The notes under the pieces: model-generated | The model's input: the letters and a program-made list of their open reading frames with translations, nothing else | Told to the model about the DNA's origin: nothing | The model's database searches: none | From: a bacterium | Lineage (GTDB): Bacteria; UBA8248; JACPRG01; G963555815 | DNA length: 64,000 nt | NCBI GenBank assembly: GCA_963555815.3 | Contig: CAUVWX020000001.1 | Location: forward strand, 32,001 to 96,000 | Reading direction: 5' to 3' | Translations under genes and position numbers: made by a program | Shown here: piece by piece, positions 11,006-32,145 of the stretch | Position numbering within the stretch: position 1 is the first letter of the stretch | How the letters are laid out: every line of letters begins with the position of its first letter

Positions 11006-12091
11006 CTACCCCTCCTTCGGGGTCCCTTTTCGAAACGCCCCACAATAGTTGAAATAGAGTTGGAGTTGTCTTCGGTAGCGGTGCCAGATCCAGGGGACGT
11101 AGTCCTCCTCTTCAAGAGGGGAGAAACCAAGAGCCTCCAGATAATCCCTGGCCCCTGCGAGGGGGTCCGGCCCGCCTTGGCTGTAAGGTCCACCCGGCAC
11201 CTTGAAGGGGTCGGTGAAGAGGAGAACACCGTCCAGCCGAAGAACCCGGGCCACTTCCCGAAGGGGAGTCCTGGGGTGGACCACATCGACAATGTTGGCG
11301 CTCGCGGCAAGGTCAAGGGCCTCGTCGGCGAAGGGGAGATTAGTGCAGTCGGCCACGATAAGCTCCACATTGTCCACCCGCCCAACGGTGAGGGGTCTCT
11401 GCATAAAAGCGTTCCGGTGGCGCCTGACGAGATGCTGAATGGTGGGCCGGGGGCGGTGGAGGAGGACCGAGCGGCCAAGAAGGATGCTCGCAAAGGAAAG
11501 GTCCACGCCAAAAACCCCCTCAAAGGCCTCCGAAAGGCGGAAGACAAGCCCCCCCGGACCGCAGCCGCTATCCAGGGCGAGGTGCTTTCCCTTGGCATTT
11601 CTCTTCGCCATCTCGGCAAGGACGTCATAGGGGTTTCTGCCATCGAACTCGTCGAGGAACTTTCGAAATGAGGCGGGAAGGGGCGCTTCCGAGAGGATGT
11701 CGGCCACCCGGTCGTAGTGGAGGGTGAGGTTGACATCCATCTTGTCCTCGCGTCGCGCAAGGTCGTAGAGGTCAAAGTGCTGCTCCCGAAGCCACATGAG
11801 AAGATCCTCGGAAAGGCCCCCAAACATTCCCGCTTGGCTGATGATGGAAGGATACCGGGCGGCCAGATACTCTTTGGGCCGGTGAAGAAGGATAAGAACC
11901 CCCCCGATGACGGGATACCATCCCTGGCACTCATCGCACCGGACCCCTCCCTCCACAACCTCGTCCTGGTCTCCCTCGGCGGGCCGAAGGGGGATCTCAC
12001 CCCCGTGAAGAGAGAGGTGGCCGCCACACTTCCCTCGCTGTCTCACACGGGGGGCAGGGCAGACCAGGTATTTTAATTTCTCAATCTGCAT
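11006..12091 (-). CDS. Class I SAM-dependent methyltransferase with N-terminal Trm112-like Cys module
   Basis: LVCP..C, CDECQGWYPVIGGVLIL; ALDSGCGPGG motif I, GVDLS, VADCTNLPF, EVARVLRLDG. Confidence 0.8.
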   Translation of the reverse strand: MQIEKLKYLVCPAPRVRQRGKCGGHLSLHGGEIPLRPAEGDQDEVVEGGVRCDECQGWYPVIGGVLILLHRPKEYLAARYPSIISQAGMFGGLSEDLLMWLREQHFDLYDLARREDKMDVNLTLHYDRVADILSEAPLPASFRKFLDEFDGRNPYDVLAEMAKRNAKGKHLALDSGCGPGGLVFRLSEAFEGVFGVDLSFASILLGRSVLLHRPRPTIQHLVRRHRNAFMQRPLTVGRVDNVELIVADCTNLPFADEALDLAASANIVDVVHPRTPLREVARVLRLDGVLLFTDPFKVPGGPYSQGGPDPLAGARDYLEALGFSPLEEEDYVPWIWHRYRRQLQLYFNYCGAFRKGTPKEG

Positions 12092-12256
12092 GGGCCGTTC
12101 AGTGGTCCTTCGAGATTCATTTTGTTTCGTTCCCATTATGCCATAAGGGGACAAGAAGGGGTCTGACCCCTTGGATCTGGAAACTCAGTTGACCTTTGCC
12201 AATAAGCGACATATGAGGGACATAGAAAATTCTTCCTAGATGACGGATGACGTGGA

Positions 12257-13200: not shown

Positions 13201-13588
13201 GGGGCTGAAGCGGGGTCGATAAGCCGGGTTCTGTACCCCGTTAAAAACGGGGCCGCGGCCATCCCTCTGGGAGTCCGGTTGCCCGGACCCTCTAGCGGCC
13301 TACCCGGGGACATCGGGCGAGCCACCCTCAAACGTCCCCCTATTTGGCCTTGCTCCGGGTGGGGTTTGCCGAGCCGGCCGGTCTCCCGCGCCGCTGGTGA
13401 GCTCTTACCTCACCTTTTCACCCTTACCGGGTCCCGGATTCCCGGGACCTTAGGCGGTGTACTTTCTGTTGCACTTTCCCTGGGGTCGCCCCCGGTGGGC
13501 GTTACCCACCACCCTGCTCTTCGGAGCCCGGACTTTCCTCCCCAGGACCTTCCGGTCTTGAGGCGGCCACGTGACCCCCTTCAGCCCC
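13201..13588 (-). ncRNA. rnpB: RNase P RNA (bacterial type A)
   Basis: GAGGAAAGTCCGGGC, GAAAGTGCAACAGAAA and ACAGAACCCGGCTTAT signatures; P1 helix GGGGCTGAAG/CTTCAGCCCC. Confidence 0.97.
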
Positions 13589-13632
13589 TGTCTGTTCGTA
13601 AAAAACCCGCCGTTGCGAAGGGAACACCCCTG

Positions 13633-13661
13633 AATGTAATCCCTTCTCCGTCAGGTCTCAA
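13633..13661 (-). promoter_or_regulatory. Putative rnpB promoter
   Basis: TTGAGA-17nt-TACATT about 45 nt upstream of the P1 5' strand. Confidence 0.55.
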
Positions 13662-13758
13662 GGGATCTTGCGTGAGCGCTCACTTGTCAAAGACAGAGCT
13701 TCTTCGATGGCCTGGTTGGCAAGGCGGTCGGCCCAGGCGTTTTCGTCTGCATATTAAT

Positions 13759-14694
13759 TTAATGTCTGCGCTTTACAGGTCGAATCTCCCAATGTTCGCT
13801 TAGCACTTTCTTGGTGGTCCGAAAATGCAACTTCGCTACCTTCTTCAACTTATCATCCCCATATTTCTCAACGAATTTTCTCGCAGATATTTCTACCTTC
13901 TCTGATGCTCCCTTCGGCAAGGTCATGTCATACTTCTTTCCCAAACATTTGAGCCGACTCAAGAACTCACTGCGGGCCAAGATCGACGCTGCTGCAACTG
14001 CTACATCCGATTCTGCTTTAGGCTCCTGATATAACTCAATCTTTTTCCCTTTCTCCATGAGCGCTTTTTTAACAAAACTCTTGTCACCAAACTGATCCGT
14101 GAACGCATAGTTACAAGGTACTTTCTCCAAGATATTTTCGATGACCCTAGCATGGCCCCATGCCAAAAGTTTATTAACATTCCTTATATTTTTATACAGG
14201 TCGTTATACCTTTCTGGTCCGATCGCCACGATGTTCCAGGAAACTTGGCCTTTCAGGAAACCCGAGAGCTTATCGATCTCCGTATCAGATACGCTCTTGC
14301 TATCTTTAACCCCAACCGACGATAATAAGTCTACGTCATTCCTGTCCATTTTCACCCCGGCGACGACCAATGGGCCAAAATAGTCACCTTTTCCAGATTC
14401 GTCGGTCCCGATCCACGTCGTCCAGTGCGATCTGTCCCAGTCGAGTTTCTGCTGCCCACCCCTTTTAAACGGATACTCAATACCCAGAATATCCCTTAAA
14501 AATTCCTCAATGTTAGGTCCCTGAATAACAATCTTTCCTTTTTTATAAAAAATGACTGTAACATTCTCCAAACGTGCCGCATAAATCGCATGGTCCTTCT
14601 CAAAAAAATTAAACTCTTTCAATGCAAGCAGATTCTTTATCTCCTTGCCTCGCTCTTTTGTAATAACCTCGGTGTATGTTTCAAATTGACTCAC
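13759..14694 (-). CDS. rnhC: Ribonuclease HIII
   Basis: IGTDESGKGDYFGPLVVAG, GVKDSK, TDQF, KAESDVAVAAASILAR, LPKGAS, VAKLHFRT; TBP-like N-terminus (VIFYKKGKIVIQG); visibly AT-rich relative to flanks. Confidence 0.93.
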   Translation of the reverse strand: MSQFETYTEVITKERGKEIKNLLALKEFNFFEKDHAIYAARLENVTVIFYKKGKIVIQGPNIEEFLRDILGIEYPFKRGGQQKLDWDRSHWTTWIGTDESGKGDYFGPLVVAGVKMDRNDVDLLSSVGVKDSKSVSDTEIDKLSGFLKGQVSWNIVAIGPERYNDLYKNIRNVNKLLAWGHARVIENILEKVPCNYAFTDQFGDKSFVKKALMEKGKKIELYQEPKAESDVAVAAASILARSEFLSRLKCLGKKYDMTLPKGASEKVEISARKFVEKYGDDKLKKVAKLHFRTTKKVLSEHWEIRPVKRRH

Positions 14695-14711
14695 AGCGTA
14701 ATAGCTCCTAA

Positions 14712-15770
14712 TTACGGCGCATGAAAATACTCACACGACTCACGTATCTCCGTGGCGATTCGCCCTATGCGATCTCTCGCAGCAGTCATGTCTGTGACCT
14801 CATGTGCCCCCTTCATGTCCGAATGCTGGTAAAAGTGTCGGCAAAATGGAACTTGTGCCTTTAAACGGCTCAAGTAAGCTTTGTGATCCTTACCTTGCGC
14901 GTAGAAACTCTTGAGGTCTTTTCCCCAAACTCCGCCAAAGTTCCACCCCTGACTCTCAACTTCTGCTTGTGTCGTCAATCTTAGAGAAATGAGGAGCCTG
15001 GTTAGATAGCCCTCAAAGCACTTTGCTAGTGGCATAACTACGTAAGAATACTCTGGCAAAACCAAAGGGACATCTAAAAGTGCAAAAGCCGTCTCGGCGA
15101 GCTTTTGATCATATTCCGAGAGAAAAGTGTATGCCCTTCCTAGAGAGGTTTCACACCTTTCTCTAGCCTGCTGCCAAAGTTCTGGTGTCAACAGTTTCGC
15201 GATCGTGTCAACGCTTTCAGGATCGTGCGATACAAACCGGGCTGCGATATATGAGGCGTTCTGTTGGCCCAGATTTTCGACTTTCGAGCATACTTCATGA
15301 AATAGGGGCTCACTAATACCCTGCACCAACACCGTCCCATTTTGGTAGTACGTCAGCGTAACTGTCGCAGGGCCGTCCGAAATGCGGAAGCGATATTTCA
15401 CAAACTTCGAATCCTCCTCCAAACTTGTCGAGCGGGGGTCCGAATTAAATGCGGTATGGACTGACGTTCGGAGGCCATCGTCGAGAATCTTATAGACATG
15501 GCAAGATGCCTTTCCCATCTCTGAGGTTCGGGCTGCAACCGATGCCCCAATGTGAGACTTCAATTCTTCAGCGAAAGGAGAGTCGTTCGGTTGAAGTTGG
15601 ATACGACTGTTTCGGTGAATAGTAACTGTCACGGTATCTGTTAGATTGCTAACCTGGAGTTTGACATCTCCGTTAGATAGGTCCTCTCGTTTAATCTGAT
15701 ACCCCTGGGGTCCGAACACTTCCTCAGTAAGCAGCCCAACTATCGTTTCAACTGGCAGGCGAAAAATCAT
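14712..15770 (-). CDS. RnlA/LsoA (RNase LS)-like HEPN toxin
   Basis: 352 aa; two TBP-like repeats (VTVTIHRNSRIQLQ; VTLTYYQNGTVLVQG), LPEYSYVVMPLAKCFEGYL helix, HEPN RxxxxH motif RHFYQH; recognised by motif only. Confidence 0.75.
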   Translation of the reverse strand: MIFRLPVETIVGLLTEEVFGPQGYQIKREDLSNGDVKLQVSNLTDTVTVTIHRNSRIQLQPNDSPFAEELKSHIGASVAARTSEMGKASCHVYKILDDGLRTSVHTAFNSDPRSTSLEEDSKFVKYRFRISDGPATVTLTYYQNGTVLVQGISEPLFHEVCSKVENLGQQNASYIAARFVSHDPESVDTIAKLLTPELWQQARERCETSLGRAYTFLSEYDQKLAETAFALLDVPLVLPEYSYVVMPLAKCFEGYLTRLLISLRLTTQAEVESQGWNFGGVWGKDLKSFYAQGKDHKAYLSRLKAQVPFCRHFYQHSDMKGAHEVTDMTAARDRIGRIATEIRESCEYFHAP

Positions 15771-15826
15771 CTATCTGATTTCACTAACCGAATTGTGTTT
15801 CGAGGAAGGATTGAAACGGAGATTTC

Positions 15827-16591
15827 TCACGCCTTCGTGTGTTCCGCCGGGCGGGCGGACTCCACGGCTTTGGGGGTCTCCTCCGGCTCGTAGAGAAAGC
15901 GGTTACAGTAAGGACAGGAGTGGATCTCCTCCCCATGGCGGACCTCATAGGCGAGCTGCGGGGGGAGGCTTCGGTGACACGCGGAGCAGGTCTCTCCATC
16001 CAAGGAGACGACAGCTCTGCCTGTCCGTCCCTTTCGCACCCTTTCATATTCCTCGAGCCATGCAGGGTCGACATCGATGAGAAGCCGCTTTCGGTCTCCC
16101 TGGAGCCAGCTGAGGCGCTCCTGGATCCGCCCGAGCTCTTCCTCCTTGGCTTTCACCTCTGTGGCGCAGTGGACCCCTTTTTTCGCCACCTCGGCCTTCT
16201 TCTCCTTAAGCTCTTCCCCCAAGGTCTCGGCGCGCTCCATCAACTCCAGCACAGAGGTCTCGAGCTTATCGATCCGGCGTCCTTGGCCCTCGATCTCATG
16301 AAGGAGGGCGGTGTACTCCTTGTTCGTCTTCACTTCAAGCTGTCTTCCCCGGCTCTTCACAAGGCGCTCGTGCTCCGCCTCTGACTCGGTCTCCTGAAGA
16401 GCGCGCTTTTTCTCCGCCTCCCTGCGGTTGGTTTCCAGGGCCGACTCCTCGGCCTCGGCCTCCTTCACTGAAGCCCGAAGAACCTCAATGGCCTCGGGGA
16501 TCTCCTGACAGGAGATCTCCTGGGCTGCGACCTCTTCGTCAAGGTCGCAAAGGGTTCTCAAGAGGCGGATCTGAAAGTTCTTTGTCCCCAT
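15827..16591 (-). CDS. C4-type zinc ribbon coiled-coil protein (zf-RING_7/DUF164)
   Basis: Long coiled coil, VKTNKEY, CSACH...CPYCNRFLY. Confidence 0.92.
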   Translation of the reverse strand: MGTKNFQIRLLRTLCDLDEEVAAQEISCQEIPEAIEVLRASVKEAEAEESALETNRREAEKKRALQETESEAEHERLVKSRGRQLEVKTNKEYTALLHEIEGQGRRIDKLETSVLELMERAETLGEELKEKKAEVAKKGVHCATEVKAKEEELGRIQERLSWLQGDRKRLLIDVDPAWLEEYERVRKGRTGRAVVSLDGETCSACHRSLPPQLAYEVRHGEEIHSCPYCNRFLYEPEETPKAVESARPAEHTKA

Positions 16592-16604
16592 CAGATCTTA
16601 AAAG

Positions 16605-16681
16605 TGGGTGGGCCCACCTGGTCTCGAACCAGGGACCAACCGGTTATGAGCCGGTGGCTCTTCCAACTGAGCTATGGGCCC
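16605..16681 (-). tRNA. tRNA with CAT anticodon, most likely Ile2 (lysidine)
   Basis: GGGCCCATAGCTCAG 5' end, anticodon loop CTCATAA, position after rpoD; 3' end reads ACCCA instead of ACCA. Confidence 0.9.
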
Positions 16682-16734: not shown

Positions 16735-18450
16735 CTAGTCGTCCACAAAGCTCTTCAACCGCTTGCTGCGGCTGGGATGGCGAAGCTTTCTCAGAGCCTT
16801 CGCCTCTATCTGGCGGATCCGCTCCCGGGTCACGGAAAAGTCCTGCCCCACCTGCTCCAGGGTGTGCTCGCTATCCATCCCGATGCCAAAACGCTTCCTG
16901 AGGACCTTCTCCTCCCGGGGGGTCAGGGTCTGAAGAACCCGTAGGGTTTGATCCTTAAGGTCCAACTTGATGATGGCGTCCTGGGGGGCGGTGACCGTTT
17001 TGTCCTCGATGAAATCTCCGAGGTGGCTATCCTCCTCCTCCCCGATGGGGGTCTCAAGGGAGATGGGTTCCCTGGCGATTTTCAGTACCCTTCGGACCTT
17101 CTCTACGGAGAGCTCCATTCTCTCGGCAATCTCCTCCGGGGTGGGCTCCCGGCCGATCTCCTGGACCAGGCAGCGGGAGGTCCGGATGAGCTTGTTGATG
17201 GTCTCGATCATATGAACGGGGATTCGGATGGTCCGCGCTTGGTCAGCAATGGCTCGGGTGATGGCTTGTCGGATCCACCAGGTGGCGTAGGTGCTGAACT
17301 TGTAGCCCCGTCTATACTCGAACTTCTCAACGGCCTTCATGAGGCCGATGTTCCCCTCCTGAATAAGGTCGAGGAAGTGCAGACCTCGGTTGAGGTACTT
17401 CTTGGCGATGCTGACGACGAGGCGCAGGTTCGCCTCATCCAGCTCCTTCTTGGCTTGCTTGTTCTTGGTGTGTCCCCGCTCAATCACCCCCAGGGCCTGA
17501 ACCAGGTCTCTCCTGGAGGTCTCGGCTTCCTGCTCGACCTTCTTGATCTGGCGCTTCACGGCCCGGATGCGCCGATCAAAATCCGAGAGAACCGACAAGC
17601 GATACCGACCCTTTCGCTGCCTGCCGTTCTTTTGAAAGTCCCGGATCATGGCCCGAAACTCAGGCTCATCGAGGTCTAACTCTGCCAAGAAGACGTAAAT
17701 CTCCTTTTCATGATCACGGATTTGTTTCACTAGGCTTCGGATCCGTTCGACGATTCGATCGATCTGTCGGCCCGTCAAGTTGATTTCTTGGATGAACTTC
17801 ACAATCCGGGCTCGTTGGCGCTCGGCCCCCTGCGAATGGCCATTCTTTCCAGCGCTGACCCGACGGAACCTCCCGTAGGTGTCCCTGATCTTTGAGATCA
17901 GGGTTAGGACCCGCTGGATTTCTTTCTCTTCTTCCGCGCCGCCCTTCTCATCACCATCGCTATGGCTGGAGATGTCGTAGACCCGAATCTCACGGCGCTT
18001 CAGGAGCGCCCCGAGGCGGATCACCTCCCGCATGGCCACCGGCGTCTGGATGGTCCCATGAAAGACCTCAAGCTGCCCTTCCTCGATCCGCTTGGCAAGT
18101 TTCACCTCCCCTTCCCGGCTGAGGAGAGGAATGGAGCCCATTTCCCGCAGATACATCCGAACCGGGTCATCCGTCTTTCCCAGGTTCGATTCATCCACGG
18201 CCAGCCCCGTGTCGGCTTGCCCCTTCTCAGGCTCCCCGTGTGGAAGACTCGCTTCCTGTTGAGTCTCTTGCTCTTTGTCAATGACATCGATGTCCATCTC
18301 CCCAAAGACCATCATGATGTCATCGATCTGCTCGGGGGAGATGACCTCCGGGGGAAGGATGTCGTTGACCTCTTCGTAGGTCAGGTAGCCCCTTTCCTTC
18401 CCCATGGAGACAAGCTGTTTAATTTCACTCATCCGTTCTTGATTCGACAT
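16735..18450 (-). CDS. rpoD: RNA polymerase sigma factor RpoD
   Basis: [61 protein letters not shown]. Confidence 0.99.
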
Positions 18451-18497
18451 CTTGGCGCCTTCCTCCCTCTCAGGTGCCACGGTGTCTACACTATCCC

Positions 18498-31051: not shown

Positions 31052-32145
31052 GCGGATCTCCCGGCCGTCTCGAATTCGGCCAGGCGGTCGGCCTCGTGGG
31101 CGGCGATGAGGGGCTCGATAACCTCTTCGAGACCTCCCTCGAGAACCGCCTCCAGCTTGTAGAGGGTCAAATTGATGCGGTGGTCGGAGACGCGGCCCTG
31201 GGGAAAGTTGTAGGTTCGGATCCGGCCGCTTCGGTCTCCCGACCCCACCTGGGACCGCCTCTCGCGAGCCCGTTTCTCTTCCTGCTCTTGCTTGGCGGCG
31301 TCGTAGAGACGGGCCCTGAGAACCTTTAGGGCCTTGGCCCGATTCTTGTGCTGGGATTTTTCGTCCTGACACGTAACCACCATCCCCGTCGAAAGATGGG
31401 TAATTCGCACTGCCGAGTCTGTCGTGTTCACGCTCTGGCCACCAGGGCCTGAGGACCGAAAGACATCGATCCGAAGGTCCTGGGGGTCGATCCGAAGGTC
31501 CACCTCCTCGGCCTGAGGAAGAATGGCCACCGTCACTGCCGAGGTATGGATCCGGCCTCCGGTTTCGGTCTCAGGCACTCGCTGGACCCGATGGGTCCCG
31601 CTCTCATGCTTGAGTAAGCTATAGACCTTTTTCCCCTCGACCGAAGCGATGACCTCCTTATAGCCGCCAAGGCCTGTTGGATGCTGGCTCATGATCTCGA
31701 CCCGCCATCCTCGACGCTCAGCAAATTTAAGGTACATCCGAAAGAGCTCGGCCGCAAAGAGAGAGGCTTCCTCTCCTCCTGTCCCCGCCCGGATCTCCAG
31801 GATGACGTTTCGCTCGTCGTTGGGGTCCTTGGAGAGCATGAGGTGCTTCAGGCGCGCCTCCGTTTCCCCCCGGCCCCCCTCCAGACGTTCCAGCTCTTCT
31901 CGAGCGAGCTCCCGCAGCTCCGCCTCCTCGGCCTCGGCCATAACCTCTTGTCCCTGGCAAATCTGCTCCTCAAGGGTCAAGAGGTGACGGTAGAGGTTCA
32001 CCACCTCCTCCAACTCCGCCCGCTCCTTGGCCAGGGTCCGGAAGGTCTCCCGGTCGGCGATGACCTCCGGGTCGCTGAGGCGCCCGTTGAGAACCTCAAA
32101 GCGGTCCCCCAGGGCGGCCAGCTTGTCAAGGAGATGAGGGTGCAT
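31048..32145 (-). CDS. prfA: Peptide chain release factor 1
   Basis: GGQ motif (SGPGGQSVN), PET specificity tripeptide, IRTYNFPQ. Confidence 0.98.

Follow-up and report, generated by a model that had tools for sequence, protein, structure and literature searches.

Organization of the locus

The DNA analyzed here (the window) is the 64,000-nucleotide stretch at positions 32,001 to 96,000 of contig CAUVWX020000001.1, and the element in question is a pair of adjacent genes, hereafter gene 1 and gene 2, which form a foreign cassette in the place of the host RNase HI gene (rnhA). All features of the locus described below lie on the reverse strand. Gene 1 (14712..15770) encodes a protein of 352 amino acids (aa) that Pfam, profile comparison, structural modeling and Foldseek mark as a predicted RnlA/LsoA-like endoribonuclease with a TBP-TBP-HEPN layout, and gene 2 (13759..14694) encodes an RNase HIII of 311 aa that starts with GTG and matches TIGR00716, DUF3378 and RNase_HII. 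A Shine-Dalgarno-like AGGAG (14705..14709) stands 10 nt ahead of this GTG, inside the 17-nt gap between the genes. The HEPN Rx4H motif of gene 1, RHFYQH (residues 311–316; R311 and H316 correspond to R318 and H323 of RnlA), is encoded at 14823..14840 as read from the sequence, and alignment placed K250-x-x-E253, at the positions of R255 and E258 of RnlA, at 15012..15023; the lysine is normal in this subfamily. A previous reading of the letters alone (the sequence-only reading) had noted two co-oriented genes 17 nt apart with AGGAG between them and more AT-rich than their flanks. The coordinates and the site were borne out, and so was the composition: the GC content of the cassette is 0.463 against a genome mean of 0.598, a value as low as this occurred in 1 of 4,150 sampled 2,125-bp windows of the genome, and GC content at third codon positions is 0.49–0.50 in the cassette genes versus 0.75 in the flanking genes.

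The region 13399-16653 is covered in one piece by contigs of three public sequencing runs from three studies, with 0, 17 and 18 substitutions and no gaps, although one of these runs may itself be the source of the window; contigs of a fourth run cover the right junction. An assembly chimera was ruled out, since independent contigs span both junctions. Because the contigs of three studies run unbroken through this region, the arrangement is real and present in several strains. In the strains that these contigs cover, gene 1 is uninterrupted and retains its four catalytic positions.

The cassette replaced the host RNase HI gene

To define the borders of the cassette we compared the locus with that of a genus-mate, G001, by blastn. 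Identity was 92.7% up to position 15874 and 94.6% from position 13748, with no match between. Together with the GC content, this delimits a foreign AT-rich segment of 2,125 bp (13749..15873) that stands for 603 bp of G001, namely the end of a zinc-ribbon gene and codons 1-191 of rnhA. The slot in G001 holds a 220-aa RNase HI (RVT_3/RNase_H). In the window, the last 29 codons of the host gene and its stop remain at 13658..13748, identified by their identity to G001, while the first catalytic motifs are gone; this remnant, which the sequence-only reading had not noticed, shows 89.7% amino-acid identity to residues 192-220 of the G001 RNase HI, and nothing else in the genome matches that protein significantly. 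On the left the cassette is flanked by the zinc-ribbon/coiled-coil gene (15827..16591; PF02591, PF24481), which is 88% identical to its G001 counterpart over residues 1-239 and whose last 14 codons lie inside the replaced segment, and on the right by the RNase P RNA gene rnpB (13203..13582; Rfam RF00010, 304 bits). The order of the locus is thus dnaG, rpoD, tRNA, zinc-ribbon gene, cassette, RNase P RNA.

The slot is a stable one among relatives. We searched 40 of them and compared coordinates: in all 39 that have the zinc-ribbon gene, a type-1 RNase H follows it directly, and the remaining one, G012, has neither the zinc-ribbon gene nor a type-1 RNase H. A type-1 RNase H was found in 49 of 50 phylum relatives. 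In the genome of the window (95.7% complete, 2 contigs), PF00075 and PF13456 gave no match, and one further RNase HII-family gene is kept. Both cassette genes are foreign, because gene 1 was absent from 50 of the 50 phylum relatives and no RNase HIII scored over the cut-off in any of 60 relatives; the horizontal acquisition proposed in the sequence-only reading therefore holds. We conclude that the cassette replaced the host RNase HI gene in place.

Other routes and junctions were examined and rejected. Insertion by a transposon or integrase was ruled out, as neither target duplication nor terminal repeats were found at the cassette, nor any mobility gene. The tRNA between rpoD and the zinc-ribbon gene (16609..16681; Rfam) belongs to the context and is not the insertion junction, as the alignment with G001 shows. 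A short peptide resemblance that might have marked a 5′ rnhA remnant in the zinc-ribbon tail was discarded, since 422 of 1,000 shuffles score as high. At the other end, a promoter-like site, TTGAGA-17-TACATT (13633..13661; 9 of 12 consensus positions), lies upstream of the RNase P RNA and runs across the stop codon of rnhA. A promoter for rnpB overlapping the old stop may explain why the rnhA tail was kept; the search behind it is weak, with 3 sites found versus 1.7 expected.

RNases HI and HIII are reported to be largely mutually exclusive and redundant, with similar substrate preferences (PMC1950709). Since rnhA is gone and the two enzymes are redundant, it is likely, judging from gene content, that gene 2 has taken over the function of RNase HI.

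The wider flanks are those of the genus. The rpoD gene, a methyltransferase gene with an N-terminal zinc-finger-like stretch, and the DUF72, moaC, PIN-TRAM, ispD, ispF and cysS genes stand in the same order in G001 and are 88–98% identical there (18007-18480, a region of rpoD, and 11006-12154). The DUF72 gene of G001 appears frameshifted near codon 161.

Gene 1 is RnlA/LsoA-like and gene 2 is an RNase HIII

Gene 1 matched two Pfam families just below their cut-off of 27 bits, PF19034 (RnlA DBD; E 1e-5, 26.3 bits) and PF15935 (RnlA_toxin; E 2.6e-5, 24.8 bits). An unfiltered search of 1.84 billion representatives found 134 protein clusters matching gene 1, and PF19034 matched 52 of 52 gene 1 homologues at E ≤ 0.01. 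Searched with phmmer, gene 1 alone matched no solved structure; a profile built from 45 unfused homologues matched LsoA (E 1.2e-10, residues 14-337) and RnlA (E 4.3e-7). The predicted model of gene 1, with a predicted local distance difference test (pLDDT) score of 92.7, consists of two helix/strand repeats followed by a helical C-terminal domain. In a Foldseek search with this model the top 10 matches were all RnlA or LsoA (E 2e-9 to 1e-3), with a template modeling score of up to 0.66 for RnlA; sequence identity in the structural alignments was 12–14%.

R255, E258, R318 and H323 are required for the activity of RnlA, which has the layout TBP1-TBP2-HEPN (PMC8266594). Gene 1 carries K250, E253, R311 and H316 at these positions, three of them identical and one a conservative Arg-to-Lys change. 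All four are invariant among the 52 aligned homologues, most of which came from a motif scan that itself selects for K250 and E253. On the strength of the model and the alignments, gene 1 is predicted to have the RnlA/LsoA fold (TBP-TBP-HEPN) with the catalytic positions kept. The sequence-only reading had described a 352-aa, RnlA/LsoA-like protein with two TBP-like repeats and RHFYQH at 14823-14840, and sequence, model, Foldseek and profile matches agree with it in each respect. Pfam gave no match to an N-terminal type-1 RNase H or viroplasmin domain in gene 1.

Gene 2 scored 235.1 bits against TIGR00716 (rnhC; cut-off 161.2) and aligned to solved RNases HIII at E 1e-30. Its TBP-like N-terminal domain passed DUF3378 (28.2 versus 27 bits), and RNase_HII was also matched. 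The acidic residues D98, E99, D200 and E228 line up with the solved RNases HIII, and all four are kept without change in 89 of 89 sequences from cassettes. Residue alignment and the family models thus confirm the earlier description of gene 2 as an RNase HIII with intact acidic motifs and a TBP-like N-domain. Many of the proteins closest to gene 2 carry names from Melainabacteria/Gastranaerophilales. In a poorly rooted tree, a large RNase HIII group (P0137-P0254) with several Melainabacteria/Gastranaerophilales members is sister to gene 2 and nests among the cassette-borne enzymes. This Melainabacteria-type group could possibly represent an older domestication.

The HEPN–RNase HIII pair recurs and usually has a third gene

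We surveyed the neighborhoods of gene 1 homologues with a DNA-motif scan, taking one genome per species. The scan gave 46 genome loci, of which 6 were non-homologues and 2 ended at the gene, leaving 38 informative loci. An RNase HIII gene lay directly downstream in 27 of these and was fused to the HEPN gene in 9 (36/38); it was absent in 2. The metagenome scan gave at least 118 loci, including 3 non-homologues and 43 that were too short; among the matches listed, RNase HIII was present in 65 of 72 informative loci. Fusions with a C-terminal RNase HIII catalytic domain make up 23 of the 134 gene 1-type clusters. Thus, the recurrent pair for which the sequence-only reading had suggested looking does exist, often in fused form. 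Going by record titles, its hosts include Bacteroidota, Chloroflexota, Spirochaetia, Planctomycetales, deltaproteobacteria and methanogenic archaea. Of 40 other host genomes, 31 still have a type-1 RNase H, indicating that RNase HIII is there a part of the system and not a stand-in. The nearest homologues of gene 1 (46% identical) and gene 2 (62%) are each recorded on a contig of equal length, 1,504,650 bp, which suggests that they travel together.

Gene 1 had no match in plasmids or phages, a homologue of the three-gene type described below had none in plasmids, and viral contigs yielded no close homologue either. A plasmid search with gene 2 alone retrieved the Bacillus plasmid NZ_CP152438.1 (L218:5710-9469), which carries an operon of rnhC, a TPR/cold-shock gene, an RnlA-family toxin gene and an RnlB-family antitoxin gene; this is a canonical rnlAB pair joined, in a different order, to RNase HIII and TPR genes. 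The Methanomethylovorans plasmid NC_019972.1 (L219:5719-6690) has an RNase HIII gene next to which no RnlA-like or TPR gene was detected.

The sequence-only reading had proposed a two-gene module. The pair is real, but a third gene is usually present. It encodes a protein of some 430 aa with TPRs and a cold-shock/OB domain and comes after RNase HIII in 28 of the 33 genome loci that have room for it and, among the matches listed, in 49 of 54 such metagenome loci, as judged with a profile built from 26 of the genome loci. Besides the TPRs, these 26 proteins show DUF7017 (25/26), a C-terminal cold-shock domain (6/26) and weak matches to S1CSD-TOTE-2 (15/26 at E ≤ 0.05). TPR-less two-gene forms nevertheless recur, in 5 of the 33 genome loci with room, and in rough trees the window proteins group with forms that lack the TPR gene or are cut before it. 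These trees (FastTree on de-duplicated sequences, with those under 250 aa or cut by contig ends left out, and rooted at the midpoint or on a distant outgroup) serve as leads only.

The three-gene outline recalls the TOTE systems, which combine TPR, OB, TBP and effector modules, often with RNase H domains (bioRxiv 2025.09.15.676423, which cites a 2022 review by Aravind, Iyer and Burroughs for TOTE). Because the outline of TPR, OB, TBP, effector and RNase H matches, we file the parent class as TOTE-like; judging by these domains the three-gene form is likely of the TOTE class, a class that has probably been predicted in print already. The window pair has two TBP domains in gene 1 and one in gene 2, and its HEPN and RNase HIII proteins correspond to the effector and RNase H features given there. 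Pfam models labeled TOTE matched neither gene 1 nor gene 2. Lacking a TPR-OB component, the window is best described, on its domain content, as a TOTE-like derivative. At L076:2154-2915 and L060:7543-8610, further open reading frames beside the system weakly match the profile in its TBP part; they are perhaps stand-alone TBP proteins of the TOTE kind.

No RnlB gene accompanies the pair

The cassette leaves only 56 bp free ahead of gene 1, 17 bp between its two genes and 176 bp up to the RNase P RNA. These spaces are too small for a 120-aa RnlB, so that no RnlB gene is present at the locus. The RnlB model PF15933 had no match in the genome of the window or in 40 host genomes, in a run whose controls were silent, though the model scores a real RnlB at 87 bits; phmmer found no RnlB in the cassette loci; and a real RnlB used as query against the genome of the window gave nothing convincing (best E 0.21). 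The small antitoxin gene whose absence beside the pair the sequence-only reading had noted was not found by these searches either.

A model for the cassette

Our preferred explanation, to which we give slightly better than even chances, is that a foreign two-gene form of a widespread HEPN–RNase HIII–(TPR/cold-shock) module, likely of TOTE type, replaced rnhA, and that its RNase HIII both clears RNA:DNA hybrids for the cell and partners the RnlA-like toxin. In E. coli, RnlA has resting and active dimers (PMC8266594), and RNase HI associates with the second TBP domain of RnlA and stimulates the toxin in a way that is not understood (PMC5308261). By analogy, the RNase HIII encoded in the cassette may be a built-in version of the RNase HI partner of E. 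coli RnlA. Gene 1 would rest in an inactive dimer, as E. coli RnlA can, and RnlB would not be needed. When RNA:DNA hybrids such as phage replication primers or R-loops accumulate, both proteins would collect there through their TBP domains, with RNase HIII acting as the stimulator that RNase HI is for RnlA in E. coli. The HEPN domains would then switch to the active dimer and cut RNA, and the infected cell would stall. A role for RNA:DNA hybrids has been put forward before: fusions with RNase H and TBP domains led to the proposal that RNase LS-type HEPNs act on the RNA in such hybrids (PMC3710099). The cassette is probably read from the upstream rpoD–tRNA–zinc-ribbon transcript. A cell that lost it would be left with RNase HII only, rnhA being gone, and the toxin gene would ride on a needed enzyme; because RNase HIII would serve the host, the cassette would be retained and the toxin locked in. 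The idea that RNase HIII is the partner of gene 1, put forward in the sequence-only reading, gains from the recurrence of the pair, but in the window the enzyme stands in the place of a host RNase HI that was deleted, and a part in defense is not needed to explain why it was kept.

Several observations weigh against this model. Sequence inspection found no Shine-Dalgarno sequence within 60 nt upstream of gene 1. Variants among the strains (6 non-synonymous versus 4 synonymous in gene 1, and 7 versus 4 in gene 2) give no sign of purifying selection, in small numbers. The TPR-cold-shock gene was found neither at the locus nor elsewhere in the genome, where the best match (5e-12, to generic TPRs) compares with 1e-94 or better in true members; the gene 1 toxin may therefore be an orphan. 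The HEPN gene stands without RNase HIII in nine informative loci (2 of 38 in genomes and, among the matches listed, 7 of 72 in metagenomes). Moreover, the motif scan catches 61 of the 134 known clusters, and there are duplicates and kin among the loci, so the counts describe one subfamily and do not amount to a statistical test. Direct binding of RnlA to RNase HI went undetected in vitro in E. coli (PMC5308261). The defense-island context is also weak: the sequence-only reading had named PADLOC as a check, and PADLOC has no model for gene 1 or gene 2, while its matches near the cassettes (17 of 124 neighbor proteins, at 11 of 40 loci) are no more frequent than in housekeeping controls (2 of 16).

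Individual cassettes do lie beside genes of this kind. At L094:3-4283, L068, L074, L083, L089, L097 and L098 they adjoin DISARM (DrmA, DrmB), PD-Lambda-3 B, PDC-M16A, DNA methyltransferase or HEC-06-like genes. At L123:3742-5231 and L128, an RnlA-like gene without RNase HIII or TPR gene sits behind genes that by eye resemble type I restriction-modification genes, and is followed by a small open reading frame.

A rival explanation is plain displacement in place, in which RNase HIII alone matters and the HEPN gene is a passenger, deprived of its TPR-cold-shock partner, that is inactive or not expressed and on its way to decay. The missing third gene, a ribosome-binding site ahead of gene 2 and none ahead of gene 1, and polymorphisms without a sign of constraint all fit such a course, as may the many Melainabacteria/Gastranaerophilales-named proteins among the closest RNases HIII. 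We nevertheless regard it as unlikely, since the covered strains have an unbroken gene 1 in which none of the four catalytic positions is lost, TPR-less forms recur (5/33) and make up most of the nearest relatives with known context, and the placement of the nearest homologues of both genes on contigs of equal length (1,504,650 bp) suggests joint travel. A quite improbable reading, in our estimate, makes RNase HIII the antitoxin of an addiction module, binding and blocking the HEPN protein in the stead of RnlB. Gene order and ribosome-binding sites would favor more gene 2 product, RnlB went unmatched in the genome of the window and in the 40 host genomes (searches whose controls were silent) as well as in the cassette loci, and RNase HI helps RnlB to repress RnlA in E. 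coli (PMC5308261). The antitoxin role, which the sequence-only reading had allowed for, is weakened by the Bacillus plasmid operon, where RNase HIII and RnlB occur together. The fusions in 23 of 134 clusters fit a co-acting enzyme better than a labile antitoxin, the catalytic residues of RNase HIII are invariant, and the nine loci noted above have the HEPN gene without RNase HIII.

We give still less credence to a non-defensive, two-headed clean-up nuclease in which RNase HIII makes nicks in R-loop RNA and leaves the RNA thus released for the HEPN protein to degrade. TBP domains of the hybrid-binding kind are present on both proteins, several loci lie among housekeeping genes or beside rnhA, and defense genes are not enriched over the small control. 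By contrast, a patchy distribution across distant bacterial phyla and archaea, with absence from all 50 relatives, is what one expects of conflict genes; the characterized RnlA and LsoA are anti-phage toxins (PMC3710099, PMC8266594), and some loci adjoin restriction-modification or DISARM genes.

The preferred explanation, in which RNase HIII serves both the host and the toxin, can be taken a step further. In this bolder form, which we hold to be possible but doubtful, a TPR-less branch has come to specialize in RNase HI loci: it inserts at rnhA or next to it, eliminates that gene and brings its own RNase HIII, which leaves the host dependent on a toxin-bearing cassette. The window would be a recent case with all these features. 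At L126:1164-3309 (Ga0105082_1000789), the order rpoD, tRNA, zinc-ribbon gene, RnlA-like gene, RNase HIII gene reproduces the slot of the window with a diverged pair, whose RNase HIII is 45% identical to gene 2; this contig stops 6 bases after the RNase HIII gene, so that loss of rnhA and absence of the TPR gene are not visible. At L073:3671-6280, an intact rnhA is followed by a HEPN protein with a degenerate RNase HI domain for its first TBP domain, and then by RNase HIII. L069:2104-3412, a Terriglobia locus that also appears as L160, has neither an RNase HIII nor a TPR gene; next to the zinc-ribbon gene it carries rnhA and, head to head with it, a short RnlA-like gene of roughly one TBP domain and a HEPN domain. 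These rnhA contacts, three cases among more than 100 loci, are suggestive. The degenerate RNase HI domain in place of the first TBP domain is shared by a clade of L073, P0009, P0018, P0021 and P0034, and L073 thereby has three RNase H domains in a row. If this bolder form were true, it would give lineages a way to exchange RNase HI for RNase HIII, and a defense-borne RNase HIII a way to become a housekeeping enzyme, and the RNase H dependence of E. coli RnlA would be a relic of a built-in hybrid-sensing partner.

The locus matters in several ways. [quoted passage not shown] The locus is also a recent snapshot of the RNase HI-to-HIII switch inferred by comparative genomics, complete with junctions, a remnant and a genus-mate in the ancestral state. 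The case suggests that taking over the place of a core gene is a way for a conflict gene to become secure; the replacement is fully documented in one species only.

Comparison with known systems

The component families were already known, and the parent class has probably been predicted. Among the literature matches, no title or abstract start describes a module of RnlA-type HEPN and RNase HIII or a replacement of rnhA, though supplements and subscription papers may list the architecture. The combination of "HEPN" and "RNase HIII" matched PMC3710099 alone; in its accessible text RNase HIII is named only as a comparison for the TBP domain, and its 4,325-character supplement gave no match. RNase H and RnlA do not occur in PMC13092281 or PMC12988326.

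The cassette resembles the E. coli RnlA-RnlB and plasmid LsoA-LsoB systems, HEPN type II toxin-antitoxins acting against T4, in predicted fold, size, Rx4H motif, the E258 position and the link to RNase H. It differs from them in the 12–14% identity of gene 1 in structural alignments, in the lysine at the R255 position and in having no RnlB. The RNase H partner differs as well: E. coli RnlA relies on the host RNase HI in trans, whereas here a type-2 enzyme fills that part, either from a gene of the same operon or as a fusion with the HEPN protein. Fusions of RNase LS HEPNs with N-terminal RNase H(I)/viroplasmin or TBP domains have been described (PMC3710099), and N-terminal RNase HI-like domains are found in the near homologues P0009 and P0021; there the RNase H is of type 1 and N-terminal, whereas the RNase HIII of the cassette is downstream or C-terminal. 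As for TOTE systems, the relatives of the window pair share with them the TPR-cold-shock gene, TBP domains, an RNase H domain and an effector, whereas the window has no TPR-OB gene and sits in a core operon in the place of rnhA. Finally, in line with the exclusion between RNases HI and HIII described for housekeeping enzymes (PMC1950709), the genome of the window likewise ends with RNase HII and RNase HIII and no RNase HI; unlike the exclusion described there, the switch in the window is recent, took place in situ, left an rnhA remnant and brought an RNase HIII that comes with a toxin gene.

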